Shown: positions 4,023 through 50,588 of the stretch, one piece after another
Numbering within the stretch: position 1 is the stretch's first letter
How the letters are laid out: the number at the start of each line of letters is the position of its first letter
NCBI GenBank assembly: GCA_902763185.1
Contig: CACWQT010000001.1
Location: forward strand, 3,406-67,405
Length of the DNA: 64,000 nucleotides
Reading direction: 5' to 3'
Origin: an uncultured Rhodospirillales bacterium
Lineage (GTDB): Bacteria > Pseudomonadota > Alphaproteobacteria > RF32 > CAG-239
Notes under the pieces: generated by a model
What the model saw: the letters and a program-made list of their open reading frames with translations, nothing else
What the model was told of the DNA's origin: nothing
The model's database searches: none
Position numbers and translations under genes: made by a program

Positions 4023-5501
4023 TTAATCCATATACTTCCACTCTTTACCGTTATAAACGCAATAATGCTTTTGATATTGCGGTTTTAAGATATGTAAGTC
4101 CCCCAATCCGGTATAATCATAATATGTGTTGATTAAAGCTGAATCTATTTGATGAACAGGGATACTTTTGCCACGTTGTTCCCAATATGTATTCCAAAAT
4201 ACGCCGGCTGAAACAAGTTTAGGCAGTTTTGTGCGCACTAATTCATTCAAATTATCTTTAGGTGCAACACCAACCTTCTCGCCCAAAACGTCTATTTGCC
4301 CCAGTAATATTGAATAATATCCGGCATCTTTGGCTTTAAGATTATATGTCGCATAATAGCCGTTAATAGCATAATCGCATGGCGTTAAAACATTAAAGGC
4401 ATATTCGTGTCCGGTTTTAGATAATCTGTTTTTTGCTTCCACCGCGTATGTCGTATGATAATTATAAAATACCATAAAGAGCAGATATAAACATAGCAAT
4501 CCGTAACAAGCCTCTTTTCCTTTAGGTAATTTATTTATCAGCATAAATGTCAACATAATCGAAAGCATCAACCAAAAGATGATATAATGCAGAAATGCCG
4601 AAAAATAAAAGAGCTTAAAACAGGCTTCAACAATAAACATTAGGCTATATGTCCGCTCTAATATATTTCCTTTGAATAAAAAATAAAGAGTGGCGATGGC
4701 TGCTATCGGTATAAATATATAATATTCTATGTATTCGGTCGGCGGGTAAACAATACGCTGCTTTTCAAATATCTTCGGAATATACTGATTAAAGATAAAA
4801 TTAGACCGCCAGTAAAGCTCTATCATTTGATGATGATGTAACCACAAGAGAAACAGGCTCAAGCCTATCAGTGGTGCAATTATTGCCTTCATAAACTGTT
4901 TTACTGTGATTTTTTTTATCATCAACCAATAAATAACCAACATTGCCGGCACAATTAAGTGCATTAAAATTTTTTGGGTAAACATAAAGCCAAAGAAAAA
5001 GGCTAAAAAACTTATATTAAGAGATTTTTGGCTTGATGTTTTATCAAATTTAAACAGATAATACAGTCCTATGAAAAAGCACACAAACATAAATGTATCC
5101 GGTCGATAATCCGTTGACCACAAGAGCGAATAAGATGATACGGTTACCGCAGCCACAAACAGTGCTGAAATTTTATCATTTTGATCCAGTAAAAAGATTT
5201 TATAATGATAATATGCAATCAGATAGAGCATAAACACGCCCAAAATATTAAATATTGCAAAAATATGCGGGTTATTTATTAACGCTGCAACAAAAGGGGC
5301 AGATAAATACCATGTTAAAGGATTATGGTGTTGAAAAAAGTCTTTATACGGTATTTTTCCTTGCCAGACCAACCATGAAGTATGCAAGTGTTCCACATTA
5401 TCGCCATTAGCATTAACCACTATTCCATAAATATGGCAACCTACCAAAAACATGGCGATGATATAAAACCACAAAAAGCGGCTTAACCACTTAGTCAACA
5501 T
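4023..5501 (-). CDS. Polytopic membrane protein, putative GT-C fold glycosyltransferase (ArnT/PMT_2-like), paralog 1
   Basis: More than 10 predicted TM helices. The first-loop motif NGDNVEHLHTSWLVWQGKIPYKDFFQHHNPL resembles the D/E-containing loop followed by PY.D....PPL in GT39/GT83-type enzymes, and there is a soluble Cys-containing C-terminal domain. The ORF extends to 5555. The ATG at 5501 (MLTKWLSRF...) gives an 11-nt overlap with the upstream paralog. Confidence 0.55.
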   Translation of the reverse strand: MLTKWLSRFLWFYIIAMFLVGCHIYGIVVNANGDNVEHLHTSWLVWQGKIPYKDFFQHHNPLTWYLSAPFVAALINNPHIFAIFNILGVFMLYLIAYYHYKIFLLDQNDKISALFVAAVTVSSYSLLWSTDYRPDTFMFVCFFIGLYYLFKFDKTSSQKSLNISFLAFFFGFMFTQKILMHLIVPAMLVIYWLMIKKITVKQFMKAIIAPLIGLSLFLLWLHHHQMIELYWRSNFIFNQYIPKIFEKQRIVYPPTEYIEYYIFIPIAAIATLYFLFKGNILERTYSLMFIVEACFKLFYFSAFLHYIIFWLMLSIMLTFMLINKLPKGKEACYGLLCLYLLFMVFYNYHTTYAVEAKNRLSKTGHEYAFNVLTPCDYAINGYYATYNLKAKDAGYYSILLGQIDVLGEKVGVAPKDNLNELVRTKLPKLVSAGVFWNTYWEQRGKSIPVHQIDSALINTYYDYTGLGDLHILKPQYQKHYCVYNGKEWKYMD

Positions 5502-6975
5502 ACATCCACTCCTTTGCAACTTTATCATATACACAATTATGGTGCCGATATTCATATTTCAGCAAATAAAAATCAGGAAATGATGAAGGCATATAATATT
5601 TTTCGATAATATTCGGCGAAATCCGTTGAATTTCCTCAAAATACCCATGATGTTCGGCATAACTGCTTTTATACACACCTCCGAATATTATTTTCGGCAA
5701 ATACTTTACAACCAAATCATCCATTACCGGATGCGGTGCAATACCTAGTTCTTCCCCTACCATATCAACATGCCCAAACATTGACCAATAGTAATGCGGA
5801 TCTTTGTTCATTATAGATTGATTGCCGAAATAACTGCTTAAAACATAATCACAAGGTTTTACATTACGGTCAAGAAGACGGGCGAAACTTCTGTCTTGTC
5901 CTCGCGTGCCATGATAATTCGGCACTGACGTATAGGCATAATATCCGCCAACCACGATAAAAACAAGCAACACATATGGGGCTTTTTCTCTAATCTTCTC
6001 AATTAAAACGCTGTTTAAGCACACCGCATATATCATCAGCGGCAGCATATAATACGGTGCAATTGAAAAATAAAAACAACGTAAAGGCAATTCCACAGCA
6101 AATAAAAATGAAATAACCTTAAAATACGGATTTGCGCTCTTAAAAAAGAAAATAATACTGATAGCTGATAGGCTTATGGAGAAAAACAATGTTTCATGAT
6201 TCATCACATCTATCTTCTTAAATCCATAATATTTTTGCATAATCACATTAAACGGGTAATTAGATTGCCAATAGAGCTTTAAGGTGTCATAGTGATAAAG
6301 CAATGCTACAAATAACAACAAGCAAACAGCAGGCAATATCAATGCGGTTAAAATATCTTTTACAGGACTTTTTTGTTTATAGAAAACACCTAAGCTTGCC
6401 AACCCTAAGAAAAACAGCGGCATAAGTATTTTTTGGGTAAACATAAAGGCAATAAAAAAGCTCATAAAAGCAACACACAGCGCAAATAACTTCATTTCCT
6501 GCCAATAGATAAAGAGAAAATACAGTCCCACAGCATAGAAAAGTGCCATAAACGTATCGGGATTGAAGTTAAAGCAATAGATATAAAAGTATGGCGGACA
6601 AAGAATAAGCAATGAGATTAACGCACTTATTCCACCCACAAAAAAGCGCGCCGCAATTTTATAAACCACCCAAAATGTTGCCACACCTCCCACGATTGAC
6701 ACGGCATGTGCAAAATCAAGCAATCTTAAAAGACTGGTAAAATGTCGGACAATCGGGGCAAAGACATACCATAAAAGCGGATTATGGTGTTGAAAAAAGT
6801 CTTTATACGGCACAGAGCCATAAGCCACGAGCCATGTGGCGTGCAGATGTTCTACATTATCGCCGTTGCCGGTTTCGGTTGCCATAACTGTCCACACACC
6901 AAAGCCTAAGCCATAAATAAGCAAGCTGCAGACAGCAAACCATAAAAAATATTTATAACTGTTTTTTAATGTCAT
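5491..6975 (-). CDS. Polytopic membrane protein, putative GT-C fold glycosyltransferase, paralog 2
   Basis: Clear paralog of 4023-5501: NGDNVEHLHATWLVAYGSVPYKDFFQHHNPL, FMFTQKILMxL, and a C-terminal CDY...YY...VD(M/V)(V/L)GE(E/K)(L/V)G(I/V)AP...NCVY(N/D). The ORF extends to a TTG at 7017. The ATG at 6975 is preceded by GAGGG. Confidence 0.55.
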   Translation of the reverse strand: MTLKNSYKYFLWFAVCSLLIYGLGFGVWTVMATETGNGDNVEHLHATWLVAYGSVPYKDFFQHHNPLLWYVFAPIVRHFTSLLRLLDFAHAVSIVGGVATFWVVYKIAARFFVGGISALISLLILCPPYFYIYCFNFNPDTFMALFYAVGLYFLFIYWQEMKLFALCVAFMSFFIAFMFTQKILMPLFFLGLASLGVFYKQKSPVKDILTALILPAVCLLLFVALLYHYDTLKLYWQSNYPFNVIMQKYYGFKKIDVMNHETLFFSISLSAISIIFFFKSANPYFKVISFLFAVELPLRCFYFSIAPYYMLPLMIYAVCLNSVLIEKIREKAPYVLLVFIVVGGYYAYTSVPNYHGTRGQDRSFARLLDRNVKPCDYVLSSYFGNQSIMNKDPHYYWSMFGHVDMVGEELGIAPHPVMDDLVVKYLPKIIFGGVYKSSYAEHHGYFEEIQRISPNIIEKYYMPSSFPDFYLLKYEYRHHNCVYDKVAKEWMYVD

Positions 6976-7040
6976 TTTTCCCTCATAAGGGGATATTAGC
7001 AACAGATTTGCTGTCAATCAAGCAGAAAATTATCCGCACA

Positions 7041-40864: not shown

Positions 40865-43724
<2,860 letters not shown>

Positions 43725-45925
43725 TCGGATCGTAGTCTATGCCAAGTTTAGATAGAATATCCTCATTTTCGTCTGAACGTTGCGCCACAATCCAATCCGG
43801 AACATTCGGCGATGCTGGCAATGCTGCTTGAGCTTTCATTTTTTTATCCAAATACCAACGAGGAGAATCCGCCATAATCGGCGTTTCAATATAACCTTGC
43901 ATCAAAACAACCTGCTTTAACATGGGTAAACTCAACAATTCGTTGGTACTAATAGCTGAAACAGCTTGTAACTGATAACTTACATTTTTAGCAAAAGGAT
44001 TGAACTCTTTATTGCTAATGCCGCCTTCGTTACGTGAATATGAGGTGACTTGAACGGTTTTATTACCAATCATTTTAGAGAAACGTTGGGCGGTTTGCTC
44101 GTTGTTTTGGGATAAAATAACCTTGCAAGCAGTAGTAGAAATAACCGTTTCAAGGTCATCTTTACCGTATTTACCGGAAATTTGGCCTAAATCTTGTCCA
44201 ATCAGTAAATATGACACTTTTTGACCACGACCAACCGCCGGTCCGTCAATAACAGCTTTTAACTTAGGCATTTGCGGAAACTCGTCAAGCACGAACAATG
44301 TCGGGAACGGCCCCATTTTACCATCAGTTTTATTTACAAAATTCGGTGGATTCGAAATCAAATATGCACTCATTAAGTCCACAAATACAGCACTAATCGG
44401 GTTTAAGGCTTGTGCATCGGTCTGGTTAACAGATAGGTAGACAGATATTGGCTTCCACTCACCGGTTACAGGGTCTTTCATACCGCGCAAATCTTTAAAC
44501 TTCAAATCAGAGAAACTGGTTCGTGCCACCACCGCGGCGTTTTTAAAGATACGAATACCATTGAAGGCTGTAGAAAGTACGGAGCCACGCTCTTTATCCG
44601 GTTTAGCACTCAAACCGCTCAATTCAGTGATACAACGACGTGAATATCCATAGTCATTGGCTTCATTAACCGCGGCATCCAACAAATCGCGCATTAAATC
44701 TGCCATAGCTGCCATTTGATCACCTTCATCCAAACGACGCTTAATCTCATTACTTTGTTCAATTTGGGCGGCAGTAATCCATTCCAAAATCATCGCCATA
44801 CAAGCTTCATGATTTACCCATCTGTCAGGAAATGAGTTCCATGTGCCGACCGGTAAGTAATTTTCTATGGTTAGATTATCGTTTTGCAGATCTTGCAAAG
44901 CTCTTGCTGCATTTGCACGCAGATTACCTTCTTGCATCTCTTCATATAAATTGGTTAATTCCGCTTTATCTGCGGCAGTCATTGAGCCTTCACTGATTTT
45001 TTGGATAAATTTTTCATTTGCTAAGGCTTTTTCGCATTTGGATGCCACAAAGTGTATCAATCCGCATAAGGCACCACGACCTGCTTGTGACCAATATTGG
45101 TCACCACCACCTTTAGGATCTTCCACAAGCGTATTGCACATAGAGTCAATATACAAATCGCGCTCAGGCCCTGGTGCCGGCAGAGCTCCCGGAGAAAGCG
45201 GATTCCAGCTCGGATAATATTCACCTGTTTCTGGATTATCTTCTTTACCCCAGTTAATAACGAACACCGGTCCGACTTTGTTTCTGGCACCTGTGGTTTT
45301 ATAACATAACTCCGGTTTCGGGTCGTTCACGATAATACTCATCCCTTCGGAGTTAAAAATTGTCGGAATAACAATACCAACAGTTTTACCGGTTCCCGGA
45401 GGTGCGCAACATAAGGTGGATAGCGTTTCTTTTAGTTTTAAGAGCTTTCCTTGGAATTTGCCAACAACCATGCAAAAACCGTCAAAACCTAACAATTCCA
45501 TTCTTTGAATATCACGAAGTGTAGCAATATGTGCCGAACCGTGAACATTTGATTGGAATTTATACGGACATTTAATGGCACCGACAAACATTATTACCGG
45601 AAAAATTATCAGAGGCAAAGCCGGTATCCATAAACTCAGCTTAAATGAACCGTTATAACTCATCATCTTTTTTATCCACGAAATATAACGGCTATATAAA
45701 AATTCCGGTTGGTCAAAAGATTTTTTTATAAATTTTGCAGCAATGTCTACGTTTTCTTTAGAAATACCTTTTTGTAACAAAAAAGCAAGCGGCTGTGAAA
45801 TGTATGCGAAGAAAACTGTAAATACCACAGATAAAATAAACGTCGTTGCCATCCAACGCACCGCTTTATCATACTCTTCCCACTCTTTTCCTCTTTCTTT
45901 TACCATTCTTCCCTCTATAAAATGT

Positions 45926-47191
45926 TTATGCTAGACTGTGTATCAGTTTTTTCAATTTTTCAAAAGAACTCTTATCTGCCTTTTCTTCGCAGGTCTCAAG
46001 TGACTTTGAAAACAGCTGTATCTCTTTTGGACTACCACGGTTAATTCGAGTTACATTTATCCCCATATGGTTCCATACTTCGAACATATCTTCAGCATTG
46101 ATAATGTTTCCGCCTTGGATGATAACATAAGGAACAATTTCATAGTTCATATCCGCCACAGCTAATTTTGTTTTTAGGATATCTCGAGCGATATCAATTT
46201 TGCGCACCGGAGAAATACGATGACTGCTTTCAGAGAACCACAATGGCTCTTCATCATTAAATTTCTCTTCATCCGCCAACCAATCCCCTACTTCTTTATC
46301 TACTAAGCAAAGCATTATTTGGTTGCGACTAACGGCAACGTAGTCAATCGTTGTCTTCTTAATTATGGCAGACATAATGACATCATATCCCTTTTGTTTA
46401 AGCACATCTAATACAGGTGTATGAGATTCTTTTGGTGCTATTTCAGCTCCTTTAGGCTTTGATGCTATATCTCTTGTTGCCGGCTGTTTAACTTTATGCT
46501 GCTCGGCGGCGGTATCTTTTTCCGGTTTGACCTCTATGGGTTTCGGTTCATCCGCCACTAATGCAGAAGGTATAGATTCTTCTTGTTTTTTCTCTTTTTT
46601 ATCAAAATCAAAATCTAAGTCAAAATCGTCATCATCAAAATTAAATAGTGCATGTTCAGTTAAAGGTTCCGGATTCTTTTTGCTTGCGGCATATGGTGAT
46701 GATGTTGTTCTATTTGCCGCTGAAACATTGCTGTTTATATTGGATTGCATTAATGCAACCGAAGGCAAAACAGGACGTTTAACAGGTGCTTTTTTGATTA
46801 TCGGCGTCTTTTGTATTTGTGTCTTTTCTTCAGTAATTGATTTCTTTTTCACAACCACTGGCGCTTTTTTATTTAAGGTCAATTTTCTATAAAGATAAAC
46901 CGGACTTAAAATAATTTTCTTTAACCAGCTTTCCCATTTCATTAAGCACAACCCGACCCATCCGGCAAGCCACAAAGGCACAGAACTGACCAGTATTAAG
47001 AAAAAGGCTATTTCAGAGCGACTAACCGCCTCGCCACTGTTCCATTTTTCTTTTAAGAGTTGCCAGTGTTCTCCAGTAAATATATCAAAGTGCCAATTTA
47101 TCAACAAAACAACCCTTATGCCGTCTATGAAAACAATAGTCCACAGATAGCCAATAATAAGTGTTTTGAGTATAATTAGCAGTGGTTTCAA
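45926..47191 (-). CDS. Hypothetical membrane-anchored protein: WHFDI two-TM module, charged linker, NERD-like C-terminal domain
   Basis: The N-terminus is paralogous to the 47248 ORF (LINWHFDIF...PVYLYRKLT). The linker is low-complexity and carries a DDDDFDLDFDFD run. The C-terminus, IDYVAVSRNQIMLCLVDKEVGDW...PLWF...SPVRKIDIAR...VPYVIIQGG, resembles the NERD / PD-(D/E)xK layout, assigned from pattern memory only. Confidence 0.5.
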   Translation of the reverse strand: MKPLLIILKTLIIGYLWTIVFIDGIRVVLLINWHFDIFTGEHWQLLKEKWNSGEAVSRSEIAFFLILVSSVPLWLAGWVGLCLMKWESWLKKIILSPVYLYRKLTLNKKAPVVVKKKSITEEKTQIQKTPIIKKAPVKRPVLPSVALMQSNINSNVSAANRTTSSPYAASKKNPEPLTEHALFNFDDDDFDLDFDFDKKEKKQEESIPSALVADEPKPIEVKPEKDTAAEQHKVKQPATRDIASKPKGAEIAPKESHTPVLDVLKQKGYDVIMSAIIKKTTIDYVAVSRNQIMLCLVDKEVGDWLADEEKFNDEEPLWFSESSHRISPVRKIDIARDILKTKLAVADMNYEIVPYVIIQGGNIINAEDMFEVWNHMGINVTRINRGSPKEIQLFSKSLETCEEKADKSSFEKLKKLIHSLA

Positions 47192-47247
47192 ATTTTTCTC
47201 CGTTATTTTTATTTTTTGATTATAATCACTGATTAGTTAACAAGATA

Positions 47248-47739
47248 TTATTGTTTTTCGTTTTCCTCTATTTTTAATGAAATTTGTTTGCGCAAATCAC
47301 GCACGACATGCGCAGATCCTTTATCCTGCCCTTGTTCTTTTATTTTATCAGAAATGATTTCATCCAATGTTTTATCTTTTCCTCCCAAATTTTTGATTTT
47401 AACATGCTCCATTTCCATATTTTTTGGCCGTGTTAGTTTGTGATATAACCAAACAATCGGATAAAAGATAAATTTCCAAAAGCCAAACTTATAAATTTTA
47501 CGGCTTAACATTATCCAAACTACAGGAATCAGAAGAAATGTCAGCCCAAAACACCAGTCACTAAAGGAATTATAAACGCCACCCTGTTCCCAAAATTCAG
47601 ACATGACACGATAGGCTTTTTTATCCAATATATCAAAATGCCATATCAGCTTAAAGATAATTTGAAAAATAAATATAACTGGCACCAAAACTACTACGCT
47701 TATTGCGCAAAAGCGCCCGATTTTTTTTAGTTTCTTCAT
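47248..47739 (-). CDS. Hypothetical small membrane protein with WHFDI two-TM module
   Basis: LIWHFDILDKK...W..GG...TM...IVWLYHKLT, paralogous to the N-terminus of the next gene. The ATGA start/stop overlap with the upstream 524-aa gene implies translational coupling. Confidence 0.55.
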   Translation of the reverse strand: MKKLKKIGRFCAISVVVLVPVIFIFQIIFKLIWHFDILDKKAYRVMSEFWEQGGVYNSFSDWCFGLTFLLIPVVWIMLSRKIYKFGFWKFIFYPIVWLYHKLTRPKNMEMEHVKIKNLGGKDKTLDEIISDKIKEQGQDKGSAHVVRDLRKQISLKIEENEKQ

Positions 47740-49310
47740 CTTTTCATTCCAATTTGATTGATAAATCCTCTTACATCCATATCATTTAAAATTGTTTTTG
47801 GAGCTTTGGAATTTCGATTATTTTTAGTAACATTTACGTTGCACATTGTATTTTCTGCATACTGAACAGCATTTTGTGCATTTTCCTTGGTATTACCAAA
47901 ATTCTTAATACCATAGTTACGTAAAAGCCATATTGAATTTAAATCTTTTTTCACTCTTTTTGCAGCTTCTAATTGGCTTTCATTTATTTTTTGCAAGTAT
48001 TTATCTTTTTCAGCGCTTGCACGTTCCGGATCCGTTTCATATTCTTTGTCTATAAGGTTTAAATTTTTTGTGATTGTTTCACCAAATGTTGCTGCGTCTT
48101 GCTTTAATTTTTGTTTGATTGGATGAATTTCTTTTATGACCAAAAGTTTTTCCATCATAGATTTTCTGTTACATCCCGGTATAGTAAGCGCTTCTGAAAA
48201 TTTATTTAAATTCTCGTTTATTTCTGAATTTATAGGAGTATCCGCTGTTGTATGTGTGCGAACCTCCTTTATTTTTTCAACCACTCCTGCTTTAATTTCA
48301 GCATCTTTTAATTTGGGATTTGTGATAATTTCTTCCATTTCTTTTAATGCTTTAGTAATTTCAACAGGCAATGGTTCAACTTCTGTCGTATTTATTGACA
48401 ATGCAGCATGATGAACTGCAAAGTTTGCTACATCTGTTTGGCGTGCAATTGTTTCAATAGCTTTACGCGGAATATCCTTAAATTCAGCCCATTCGCCAGC
48501 TTCTGGAGAATTCGGATCAGCATCCGCTTTATTTTTTATTTCAACTAAATGATTAAAACACTGTGGTTCATGTCCTTGCCACACACGCCACTTAGGCTTT
48601 TGCCCATTTTGAGCAGCCTCTACATTTTCCATTAGCTCTTTGTGGTGCAACAAAACACTTTTTACCAGCTCTTTGCCTTTTTCTGTATTCTCGGCAATCA
48701 TTTCATCAGCATAATCAAAAACTGTTTTTTCTTTATTTTTATCCGGCTTCTTTTCTGAGGACTTGCTACTGCTTAATGGGCCAAATAAAATCCAATCAAA
48801 TATATCTAAAGTCAAATCAACTGTTAAATCTATTGCTCCGGCATATGCAGCCACAACAATTTCATTATAACAGGCTTGTAAAAAATTGCTACTGCTTCCC
48901 GGTTTGTAACCATCTTTTTTCCGTTCCGGAGCTTTTGCAGGCGCGCTATGATGTTTGGCAGGAGGATCTTTTTTTTCTTTAGCCATTTTTCCCAAGCCAT
49001 AAGCATTAGATTCAAACGCCATTGCTGTATCATATTCTTCTGTTGGTGTGTCCGGTTGAGAAGGCGGTGGCGGATTTTGACCTGCATCCGGAGTTCCGGA
49101 ACCTTCTGAATTACCGCCATTTTCCGGCGGTGTCGGAGCGGTTCCTCCGGTTGTACCCGCATCAGGTTTATTATCCGGCTTATTATCAGCTTTGCCGGTT
49201 AATCTTTTCTTTTGTTCTTCTAACTTTTCTTTGAATGCCTTTGATTTGGCTTCATGGCTTTCTCTGCCAGTTATCGAGGAACTTGTGTTATCTGCCATTT
49301 TCTTCTCCAT
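47736..49310 (-). CDS. Hypothetical protein (about 520 aa) with a Pro/Gly/Asn-rich disordered N-terminus and a helical C-terminal body
   Basis: Long intact ORF. The N-terminal ~130 aa are low-complexity (NKPDNKPDAGTTGGTAPTPPENGGNSEGSGTPDAGQNPPPPSQPDTP). The alternative ATG at 49298 is preceded by GGAGAAG. No family recognised. Confidence 0.55.
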   Translation of the reverse strand: MEKKMADNTSSSITGRESHEAKSKAFKEKLEEQKKRLTGKADNKPDNKPDAGTTGGTAPTPPENGGNSEGSGTPDAGQNPPPPSQPDTPTEEYDTAMAFESNAYGLGKMAKEKKDPPAKHHSAPAKAPERKKDGYKPGSSSNFLQACYNEIVVAAYAGAIDLTVDLTLDIFDWILFGPLSSSKSSEKKPDKNKEKTVFDYADEMIAENTEKGKELVKSVLLHHKELMENVEAAQNGQKPKWRVWQGHEPQCFNHLVEIKNKADADPNSPEAGEWAEFKDIPRKAIETIARQTDVANFAVHHAALSINTTEVEPLPVEITKALKEMEEIITNPKLKDAEIKAGVVEKIKEVRTHTTADTPINSEINENLNKFSEALTIPGCNRKSMMEKLLVIKEIHPIKQKLKQDAATFGETITKNLNLIDKEYETDPERASAEKDKYLQKINESQLEAAKRVKKDLNSIWLLRNYGIKNFGNTKENAQNAVQYAENTMCNVNVTKNNRNSKAPKTILNDMDVRGFINQIGMKR

Positions 49311-49379: not shown

Positions 49380-50588
49380 TCAGACTTTTAATTTTTTTAC
49401 AAAGGCACCGATTTTTTGATTTGCTTTTACACCATCTTCCGGTGTTACTTTAATTAAACCAAAAAACTTAGGCTTAATTTTTTCCATTTGAATTGGTGAG
49501 AACATTGCCGGATTTTTTACTAGTGCTTCAAAAGAGCCATCCGCATCCTTTTGCGCTGCTCGAAAATAATTATTTATCAGGCGATCCACATCTATTGGAA
49601 AATTTTTCTCTTTTAATTTGGCAATAAATAATTTCTTACGTTCTTGTAATTCCATATACTCTTCATAAAGTTCTCTCTTTATTCTGTTTTTTATCATAAG
49701 CTCTTTCTTTTGTTCATAGCTTACTTCACAAATTTCTATGTCTATCAGTATCTCCACATATGAAATAATCGCTAACTGCAAATCTGTATCATTTAGGGTT
49801 TCAGCGAATGACAAATAGCCTTCATCATCAGCATCAGGTGCCAATCTTTTCATATCTTCCGGTGCATATTTATTGATTATATCCCAACAAGCAAGTAAAT
49901 ATTCGGCAATTTTTTTGCCAATACTCGGCTTATAATTAGGAATTAACATATCCGGCACATAGTCCGTTTGTGGTAGCTTTAGATTTTTTTTCATAGATAT
50001 TACTGTCATACTATCTTGAAAATTCTTAATTTTTTGCGCCAATTCATACTCTTCTTCTTTTAGTCCGCGCTCTTCTGCCGCTGGCTCTGCTTCCGGCGTG
50101 ACAAGACCATCTAATCCTCCATTTATTCCAGCTTGAGAATCATCCTCGGGGGTTACCAACTCATCCAGACTTCCTGATGTGCTTGGCGTAGGGGCTGATA
50201 CTAAATCGTCTAATCCACCTGCTGACTGTTCTGTTGTTTCTTGGGTTACAAATCCGTCTAATCCACCGGTAGGTTCTGTTGTAGAAGAAGAAACATAATT
50301 ATCAAGCCCTCCTGTTGATGTCGAAGATGTTTCTGTTACAAAACCATCTAACCCCTCTGTCGAAGCCGGCTGATTTTGCGATGTCATTAAATTATCAAGC
50401 GAGCTATCTGTTAAAGAAGAAGTTTCTGTTGGCTTTGGACTGCCTTGATTTACAAAATCGTTGAGTAATTTTGCAAATTCATCCTCCAAATTAATACCTA
50501 CGCCAGCATTTTGTTCCTTATTTTCAGTATTTTGGTTATTATCTTCGGGAGTTAGAAAGGAATCTAATCCGCTATTTTCATTTGCCAT
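49380..50588 (-). CDS. Hypothetical protein with eight [GS]LDxhh[TS] motif repeats in an acidic N-terminal half and a helical C-terminal domain
   Basis: The motif copies are GLDSFLT, SLDNLMT, GLDGFVT, GLDNYVS, GLDGFVT, GLDDLVS, SLDELVT and GLDGLVT, all within aa 7-164. The C-terminus is basic (...GAFVKKLKV). First gene of the block. Confidence 0.55.
   Translation of the reverse strand: MANENSGLDSFLTPEDNNQNTENKEQNAGVGINLEDEFAKLLNDFVNQGSPKPTETSSLTDSSLDNLMTSQNQPASTEGLDGFVTETSSTSTGGLDNYVSSSTTEPTGGLDGFVTQETTEQSAGGLDDLVSAPTPSTSGSLDELVTPEDDSQAGINGGLDGLVTPEAEPAAEERGLKEEEYELAQKIKNFQDSMTVISMKKNLKLPQTDYVPDMLIPNYKPSIGKKIAEYLLACWDIINKYAPEDMKRLAPDADDEGYLSFAETLNDTDLQLAIISYVEILIDIEICEVSYEQKKELMIKNRIKRELYEEYMELQERKKLFIAKLKEKNFPIDVDRLINNYFRAAQKDADGSFEALVKNPAMFSPIQMEKIKPKFFGLIKVTPEDGVKANQKIGAFVKKLKV

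Follow-up and report, generated by a model that had tools for sequence, protein, structure and literature searches.

A predicted membrane-anchored NERD-like protein encoded beside a chromosomal VirD4-type coupling protein in uncultured gut Alphaproteobacteria

A 64,000-nucleotide stretch of an uncultured Rhodospirillales bacterium (GenBank assembly GCA_902763185.1, contig CACWQT010000001.1, positions 3,406 to 67,405 of the forward strand; hereafter the window) encodes, directly upstream of a type IV coupling protein (T4CP), two membrane proteins of 163 and 421 amino acids, here called p163 and p421. A preliminary description, made from the sequence alone, held that both carry a duplicated two-helix membrane module of no known family, that the longer copy is fused through a charged linker to a domain resembling nuclease-related NERD domains, and that such a protein beside a translocating ATPase is an unusual pairing. 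The locus raises the question of what these proteins are and whether they serve the T4CP, act as a nuclease, or merely keep it company. The reading preferred here, for which the chances are judged to be about even, sees p421 and p163 as accessory subunits of the VirD4-type T4CP that are lineage-specific and reside in the inner membrane. The features concerned, in window positions, are given below.

43684-45906, minus strand: VirD4-type T4CP, 740 amino acids (Pfam; partial NCBIfam matches)
45926-47191, minus strand: p421, the long "B-type" paralogue, composed of membrane module, disordered linker and NERD-like domain (open reading frame, 421 amino acids)
46874-47191, minus strand: p421 two-helix membrane module, residues 1-106 (hydropathy and AlphaFold2 helices)
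46424-46873, minus strand: p421 linker, residues 107-256, low-complexity and predicted disordered (predicted local distance difference test, pLDDT, <50)
46604-46654, minus strand: acidic/aromatic linker motif HALFNFDDDDFDLDFDF, residues 180-196 (conservation in the order)
45929-46423, minus strand: p421 C-terminal alpha/beta domain, residues 257-421 (AlphaFold2, Foldseek, borderline Pfam NERD match)
46202-46288, minus strand: p421 domain signature segment GDWLADEEKFNDEEPLWFSESSHRISPVR, residues 302-330, the best-conserved stretch of the whole family
47248-47739, minus strand: p163, the short "A-type" paralogue, truncated (open reading frame, 163 amino acids, ATG start)
47428-47739, minus strand: p163 N-terminal W-x-F-D module, residues 1-104, homologous to p421 residues 1-106

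The p421 gene starts at TTG with GGAG 8 nt upstream, and the T4CP gene starts 19 nt past its stop. Independent gene calls on public contigs yielded identical 163- and 421-amino-acid products. All strings quoted in the preliminary description were located in the translations, namely NWHFDIF/IWHFDIL, KWNSG/FWEQGG, SPVYLYRKLT/YPIVWLYHKLT, DDDDFDLDFDFD, IDYVAVSRNQIMLCLVDKEVGDW, PLWF, SPVRKIDIAR and VPYVIIQGG.

The downstream protein was identified as a T4CP from its Pfam matches (T4SS-DNA_transf, 6.5e-59; TraG-D_C, 2.2e-22; TrwB_AAD_bind, 3.7e-18); NCBIfam matches to VirD4/TraG models were partial and far under the cut-offs. It contains Walker A (PPGTGKT) and Walker B (LFVLDEFPQ) motifs and hydrophobic N-terminal segments at residues 15-45 and 87-117. 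Its domains, its Walker motifs and this N-terminal transmembrane stem place it among the VirD4/TraG coupling proteins. No relative was found in the PDB by sequence at E<=1e-3. The last 25 codons of the gene (window 43684-43758) encode a strongly acidic tail with a net charge of -10.

Co-occurrence of the membrane module with T4CP genes was followed across genomes, and the supposedly unusual pairing turned out to be a conserved, vertically inherited gene pair. All 80 genome loci showed the order rpoH-rluD-p402-(variable gene)-p163-p421-T4CP as far as the sequence reached, where p402 is the first gene of the operon. The T4CP gene lay directly downstream of p421 in 79 of 79 of these loci; the other one, L046, stops at the contig end. 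When metagenomes were searched from the T4CP side, counting only loci with at least 1.4 kb of upstream sequence, a p421 relative was directly upstream in 62 of 64. Among distant lineages the T4CP gene came immediately downstream of a p421 relative in five of nine loci (L085, L087, L090, L091 and L093), each in a different housekeeping neighbourhood. Co-localised and conserved beside the T4CP gene at a gap of 19 nt, p421 has the genomic context of an accessory subunit.

The paired T4CPs were 45-92% identical to one another and form a subfamily of their own, in which the window T4CP was 45-65% identical to those beside p421 relatives in other lineages. Across the order T4CP identity was 67-92%, against 67-88% for RpoH and 78-86% for LigA; such conservation, close to that of RpoH, speaks for a core function. 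Among 4466 plasmid T4CPs the best were 31-35% identical, and the best plasmid match sits in a classical virB8-11 cluster.

These distributions bear directly on the idea that p421 and p163 function without the T4CP, for example as a membrane NERD-type stress, defence or DNA-sensing protein, with adjacency being inherited synteny. Four of the nine distant loci, which have no adjacent T4CP gene, speak for it, as do the occurrence of the C-terminal domain in architectures resembling those of conflict systems (TPR-Roc-COR-TIR and AAA+ fusions) and the frequent combination of NERD domains with N-terminal transmembrane helices noted in the Pfam family description. It is nevertheless considered decidedly unlikely: adjacency was kept in 79/79 and 62/64 loci, and in lineages that otherwise differ wholly in their neighbouring genes; the intergenic distance is 19 nt; and the gene, in contrast to typical defence islands, belongs to the core and is inherited vertically. 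PADLOC returned nothing for p421, p163 or the other operon products p402, p524 and p263, and a weak mad8 match (8.9e-4) for the T4CP. An assignment to an anti-phage defence system was rejected on the negative PADLOC result.

The claim that the N-terminal module is duplicated held up on alignment, with p163 and p421 matching by BLASTP at E=4e-6 over 89 residues. Comparison of the two family alignments by hhalign gave a probability of 96.3 (E=2e-9, 102 columns), and the p163 family matched a profile of the 33-member broad family at a probability of 98.4 (E=1.1e-14). W33, F35, W50 and G53 (p421 numbering) are invariant in both paralogue families, and the module motifs in p421 read NWHFDIF, HW, KWNSG, PLW and SPVYLYRKLT. 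Hydropathy analysis located two hydrophobic segments per protein (p421, 2-31 and 59-84; p163, 4-39 and 59-82). AlphaFold models showed a helical hairpin in both at pLDDT 70-89, with helices at residues 2-52 and 58-106 in p421 (pLDDT 70-83) and at 2-33, 40-51, 59-85 and 87-103 in p163. The distribution of lysine and arginine, read by the positive-inside rule, suggests a hairpin with both termini inside and a periplasmic loop of about 25 residues bearing the W-x-F-D and W..G motifs.

The module also belongs to no known family, as had been stated: Pfam and NCBIfam gave no match, and Foldseek of the p163 model returned unrelated proteins with a best E of 5. A profile of both paralogue modules recovered in-clade proteins only, in a search that depends on shared 5-mers and could miss distant relatives. 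Past the module, p163 has a conserved tail of about 60 amino acids (EHVxIKNLGGKDKTLDEII...) that is predicted to be cytoplasmic. The p163 family comprises 64 clusters with a uniform length of about 163 amino acids.

In other lineages both paralogues are full length and stand in tandem, as A plus B copies of 384 + 369 amino acids in L090, 408 + 345 in L094, 359 + 521 in L095 and 357 + 350 in L112. The upstream A copy is the more divergent paralogue in these loci; that of L112 aligned end to end with the family profile (probability 99.7, E=7.6e-27), and its motifs are degenerate, e.g. D283 is replaced by N. Because both paralogues are full length elsewhere, p163 is an A-type copy from which the nuclease-like domain has been lost. 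Tandem A and B copies, one of them degenerate, suggest a heteromer.

The charged low-complexity linker of p421 was borne out by the AlphaFold2 model, in which residues 108-256 have pLDDT <50. It includes a basic juxtamembrane stretch (KKKS...RP) and, two short motifs excepted, differs between relatives in both length and sequence. The acidic/aromatic motif has the order-wide consensus HALFNFD.DDFD.DFDF. Among the 81 unique sequences of the order, H180, L182 and F183 are present in 81/81, F194 in 76/81 and F196 in 73/81; in distant lineages the motif is looser and still recognisable.

The C-terminal domain was modelled by AlphaFold2 from a 20-sequence alignment as alpha-beta-beta-beta-alpha-beta-alpha-beta over residues 257-421 (pLDDT about 85). 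Pfam NERD (PF08378) matched p421 at 16.7 bits (E=0.011, model positions 10-110 of 111), which is below the gathering threshold of 22.1 bits; p421 is not a member of that family by score. NERD matches were obtained for 12 of 20 close relatives and 16 of 33 diverse ones (best E, 3.4e-5 and 2.9e-5), and the relative P0078 bears a precomputed PF08378 match. Foldseek against the PDB gave NucS/EndoMS (E=0.013, probability 0.99), R2 RLE, Nt.BspD6I, Card1 and Cdn1 as leading matches. The 15 best were PD-(D/E)xK folds except for one domain of unknown function (3fov), and none reached E<=1e-3; the query was the full-length p421 model, hence low TM-scores. Sequence searches of the PDB with the full-length and C-domain profiles returned low-complexity or chance matches only. 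The earlier suggestion of a NERD-like domain in which ExK appears as DKE thus stands in part: the fold class has tentative support from the weak Foldseek and borderline NERD matches and the lysine is indeed absent, while membership in PF08378 fails. "NERD-like fold" is therefore a supported designation for the modelled domain, with "nuclease" as a fold label.

The acidic positions of the fold fall where they are expected, with D283 in strand 2 and D298-x-E300 in strand 3 (D298-K-E300 in the window protein). Within the order the three acids are present in 81/81 sequences, as is the D-K/R-E form of the (D/E)-x-K part of the triad. Among 33 diverse members D283 is kept in 31, an acidic residue at 298 in 30 and E300 in 18, the other 15 having T, V, S or Q. 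The canonical PD-(D/E)xK lysine is absent in 33/33, and the catalytic triad is accordingly incomplete. Five residues are invariant in the diverse set (A306, W318, S327, P328 and N365), W304 and E308 are kept in 32/33, and P316 and W373 are nearly invariant. They cluster mainly in GDWLADEEKFNDEEPLWFSESSHRISPVR and in GNIINAEDM..W, and within the order nearly every tested position of the former is conserved in 81/81 (H324 in 80/81). Together, the missing lysine, the variable position 300 and the invariance of A306, W318, S327, P328 and N365 form a pattern that fits an interaction core better than a PD-(D/E)xK active site.

On the strength of the fold, p421 might instead be an active Mg2+-dependent nuclease tethered to the membrane, perhaps dimeric with the A-type protein, that would cut or trim DNA at the mouth of the T4CP and serve as a relaxase substitute or strand processor in DNA export or import. 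The fold class and the borderline NERD matches are in keeping with this, as are D283, D298 and E300 at the expected strand positions (81/81 in the order), the family-wide retention of D283 (31/33) and of an acid at 298 (30/33), and the conserved polar residues E308, E321, N365, D368 and R382. T4CPs are DNA translocases and the operon has no relaxase gene. Lysine-free active sites are also known, BamHI having D/E/E. Against it stand the absence of the catalytic lysine from every member, the substitutions at position 300 in 15/33, and an A-type copy that is degenerate (D283 to N in L112) or has its domain deleted (p163). Furthermore, the system lies on the chromosome and has neither oriT nor relaxase nor integrase in its vicinity, and the operon context of relatives, described below, points to delivery of protein toxins and not to DNA transfer. 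An active nuclease is thus held to be unlikely.

The p421 domain is better viewed, from the model, as a derivative of the PD-(D/E)xK nuclease fold that has lost its catalytic lysine and become dominated by an acidic/aromatic surface segment, WLADEE..F.DE.PLWFSE..HR.SPV. Over their last 25 residues, p402, p524 and the long versions of the putative toxin of relatives have net charges of +3 to +4. A receptor or adaptor role, such as the capture of positively charged C-terminal secretion signals, is favoured over DNA cleavage, because the lysine is absent everywhere, position 300 varies, conservation lies in the acidic/aromatic segment and the C-termini of the putative cargo are positive.

The p421 family is chromosomal and vertically inherited. 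Full-length p421 had 907 related clusters at 90% identity, and relatives occur in 236 GTDB species representatives, all of them uncultured gut, rumen or faecal Alphaproteobacteria. Their titles include "Acetobacter sp. 46_36", "Azospirillum sp.", "Proteobacteria bacterium CAG:495" and "Candidatus Scatocola", the last of which is filed by NCBI under Rhodospirillales. An exhaustive profile search with the C-domain recovered 312 clusters (50% identity) at E<=1e-3 and 127 at E<=1e-10, many of which are proteins of 330-500 amino acids with the same three-part architecture from other lineages. The C-domain had no match among 72,556 PLSDB plasmids.

Evidence for a type IV secretion system (T4SS) was sought around the operon. 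A tblastn search of the window and the 80 genome loci with VirB8-11 of the closest plasmid system gave no match. VirB genes were present in some metagenome loci of relatives. In L150 (18-2083) a pair of VirB8 genes (Pfam 3.2e-21 and 2e-10) and a VirB9 fragment lie 3.5-7.5 kb upstream of the operon. L112 (1452-3089) has two VirB6/TrbL copies, one of which, of 545 amino acids, matched at 2.4e-10, above cut-off. VirB6-like genes, often in two copies, were also present in L101, L103, L105, L106, L110 and L133, and two weak ones in L090. Housekeeping genes separate the VirB genes of relatives from the p421-T4CP operon.

Directly after the T4CP gene, 34 of 56 loci encode two conserved proteins, X and Y (L064, 14135-15200; L085, 13443-14674; L090, 9846-11372; L091, 13281-14272; L093, 7514-9081). 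X has a conserved MWDWS N-terminus and the invariant motif EN..H.K.P..GG..F.N..L..P.H...H. hhalign shows it to be a homologue of the C-terminal nuclease domain in YhhZ of E. coli, annotated as "putative endonuclease" (probability 98.6, E=6.2e-16), and its best PDB profile match was the HNH motif of pyocin AP41 DNase (E=0.096). Y belongs to the YrhA family (NCBIfam NF038335, 61-70 bits against a cut-off of 55), with weak SUKH matches. In E. coli yrhA comes after yhhZ, as Y does after X. To judge by homology and gene order the two genes have the layout of a toxin/immunity pair, which makes delivery of a protein toxin the most likely job of the T4CP in the relatives that bear them. No X/Y pair was found within the window, and the unrelated p263 fills the slot in the clade to which the window belongs.

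The gene order recalls dotM-dotL, and p163 and p421, as small membrane proteins encoded beside a T4CP, could be thought of as a highly diverged known inner-membrane component of a T4SS (VirB3, VirB6, VirB8 or DotM/TrbA). This is very improbable. Neither protein matched any T4SS family in Pfam or NCBIfam, including VirB3, VirB6, VirB8 and VirB10; Foldseek of the p163 model gave nothing at E<5, and the 50 top matches of p421 hold no T4SS component; and relatives encode genuine VirB6 and VirB8 in addition. The preliminary description would have lost its footing with a C-terminal domain devoid of a restriction-endonuclease-like fold, N-terminal similarity at E>0.01 or identity with a known T4SS component, and none of these was encountered. 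A reading of the locus as DotM-DotL (Dot/Icm) from gene order was likewise rejected, as the T4CP is of the VirD4/TraG type and no Dot/Icm family match was obtained.

The preferred reading, in which p421 and p163 are accessory subunits of the T4CP, can be given the following mechanism. The T4CP would be part of a vertically inherited chromosomal T4SS whose genes are scattered over the genome. Within the membrane, the W-x-F-D hairpins of p163 and p421 would associate into an A/B hetero-oligomer, which in turn would lie against the two-helix membrane stem of the T4CP hexamer. The flexible linker of about 150 residues would let the cytoplasmic NERD-like domain reach the ATPase ring, where it may serve as a docking or processing platform for the substrate translocated by the T4CP. 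A more specific version is offered as a speculation with a low probability of being right: the A/B pair would be a new class of T4CP-bound substrate receptor, made from a domesticated restriction-nuclease fold, whose membrane-tethered acidic WLADEE/PLWFSE surface captures positive C-terminal effector signals (e.g. of a YhhZ-like toxin) and hands them to VirD4, or else the domain would be catalytic in relaxase-independent DNA processing.

Several observations weigh against an accessory-subunit role. Neither the 64-kb window nor the 80 genome loci with their flanks of +/-10 kb yielded a VirB gene, so that the evidence for a T4SS comes from the loci of relatives only. The distant lineages in which p421 relatives have no adjacent T4CP gene are L089, L092, L094 and L095, and the two most divergent T4CPs of the subfamily (L096 and L100) are without a p421 partner. 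That of L096 (7905-10067) is 55% identical to the L087 type and is encoded between recF and ndk-like genes on an AT-rich contig with no p421 upstream; not every T4CP of the subfamily is therefore paired. Even the best Foldseek E-value, 0.013, is weak. D283, D298 and E300, together with many other polar residues, are completely conserved in the order, which is compatible with a working metal site. The same domain is also fused to AAA+ ATPases and TPR-Roc-COR-TIR proteins and hence is not T4CP-specific. In these fusions the signature segment, LADEE.F.DE.PL(W/Y)F.E.SHR.SPV ... N.EDM..W, lies at the N-terminus of AAA+ ATPases of about 520-560 amino acids (P0325, P0326 and P0339) and in the middle of TPR-Roc-COR-TIR proteins of about 1500 amino acids (P0269 and P0282). 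Pfam leaves the segment unannotated in both.

Coupling proteins decide what a T4SS exports, and to our knowledge their partner subunits are poorly known outside Legionella and a few plasmid relaxosome factors. DotM (IcmP)/TrbA is the membrane-anchored partner of the DotL/TrbC T4CP in type IVB systems. Like p421, it is encoded directly upstream of the T4CP and has an N-terminal membrane anchor and a cytoplasmic domain, and p421 would likewise be part of a coupling complex recognising charged signals, as in the Legionella complex. The two share no sequence or fold similarity (Pfam and NCBIfam; no DotM among the Foldseek matches listed), and the neighbouring T4CP here is of the VirD4/TraG and not of the DotL type. 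DotM has a basic Glu-binding domain, in contrast to the acidic NERD-like alpha/beta fold of p421; if p421 is an acidic receptor, it would reverse the polarity of DotM, which binds acidic signals.

With NERD (PF08378) p421 shares the order of secondary structure elements and the D...(D/E) positions. It differs in having Glu or another residue for the ExK lysine in all members and in the family-specific signature WLADEE..PLWFSE..SPV..N..DM..W. The NucS/EndoMS C-terminal domain, R2 RLE, Nt.BspD6I and Card1 are the best structural matches of the AlphaFold2 model (Foldseek probability 0.84-0.99), at E of 0.013-0.1 and 7-17% identity, with p421 again lacking the catalytic lysine.

Two chromosomal systems may also be compared. 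The rvh T4SS of Rickettsiales is a vertically inherited P-type system in scattered islets with VirB6 and VirB8 duplicated, and in the loci of relatives, similarly, VirB8 genes in duplicate and VirB6-like genes in tandem lie near the operon. In rvh, however, the T4CP gene follows virB8-virB11, whereas here it stands in its own operon with p421; the hosts here are gut and rumen lineages, and we know of no p421-like gene described for rvh. The X-T4SS of Xanthomonadales kills bacteria, its VirD4 recruiting toxins that are paired with immunity proteins. The likeness lies in a chromosomal VirD4 with adjacent genes of the toxin/immunity type (YhhZ-like HNH and YrhA-family, in many relatives); the differences are that no XVIPCD domain was detected here and that the window has no toxin/immunity pair.

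Literature on RF32 T4SS, on NERD with coupling or conjugation, on orphan alphaproteobacterial VirD4 and on YhhZ/YrhA was searched, and the p421 family is without description there and in Pfam, NCBIfam and the PDB. T4CP partners and NERD-like domains are each known; the W-x-F-D module, the combination of NERD-like domain and T4CP partner, and the strict pairing with one chromosomal VirD4 subfamily have no description in the resources searched. An uncharacterised family (312 clusters; at least 236 species-level genomes) is thereby tied to a single VirD4 subfamily in Alphaproteobacteria of gut and rumen that are abundant yet uncultured. If p421 is a T4CP receptor or a T4CP-coupled nuclease, it would be a new type of component for P-type T4SS and would point to T4SS-mediated antagonism in a little-known gut lineage. 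Its domain would be an example of a PD-(D/E)xK fold in which the lysine was lost and an extremely conserved acidic signature gained. With its mechanism as proposed above, the p421-T4CP pair is an extensible lead for T4SS biology in an unstudied lineage.

The other genes of the operon are as follows.

49380-50588, minus strand: p402, first gene of the operon (open reading frame list)
47736-49310, minus strand: p524, between p402 and p163, with a low-complexity head and fast-evolving
42933-43724, minus strand: p263, polytopic membrane protein (open reading frame with at least four hydrophobic segments)

The six genes p402-p524-p163-p421-T4CP-p263 are co-directional on the minus strand with junctions of 69, -4, 56, 19 and -41 nt; p163 overlaps the upstream p524 by 4 nt and p263 overlaps the T4CP gene by 41 nt. 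p402 has eight acidic GGLDxxVT repeats at residues 6-164, followed by a conserved C-terminal domain of about 220 amino acids. The repeats (window 50097-50573, minus strand) take the form (G/S)(G/S)LDxx(V/L/M)(T/S). The C-terminal domain is 33-72% identical within the order and is also encoded beside p421 relatives in L094 and L112; no family match was obtained for p402. p524 is always present at about 500 amino acids, with 24-31% identity within the close clade and undetectable similarity in the distant clade, and comparison with its positional analogue in L064 (8505-10001) gave BLASTP E=5.9, i.e. no detectable similarity. It is possibly an effector or adaptor under diversifying selection. p263, which had no Pfam or NCBIfam match, occurs only in the closer loci, those of the family-level clade of the window. 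p524 and p263 were rejected as conserved components, since other families have positional analogues without similarity. The tails of p402, p524 and p263 are net-positive (+3 to +5).

On one side of the operon stand rpoH and rluD and on the other ligA, infC and fbaA, all of them housekeeping genes. Chromosomal core genes (topA, dprA, plsY, secDF, uvrC and an RND efflux operon) fill the remainder of the 64 kb, and the window has no integrase or relaxase gene. A mobile element was rejected on these grounds and on the lack of a plasmid match. Counts in a promoter scan equalled chance expectation, and no promoter is claimed. Elsewhere in the window (4023-7017, minus strand) two tandem paralogues of about 510 amino acids, which overlap by 65 nt, gave weak matches to PMT_2 (dolichyl-phosphate-mannose-type glycosyltransferase).

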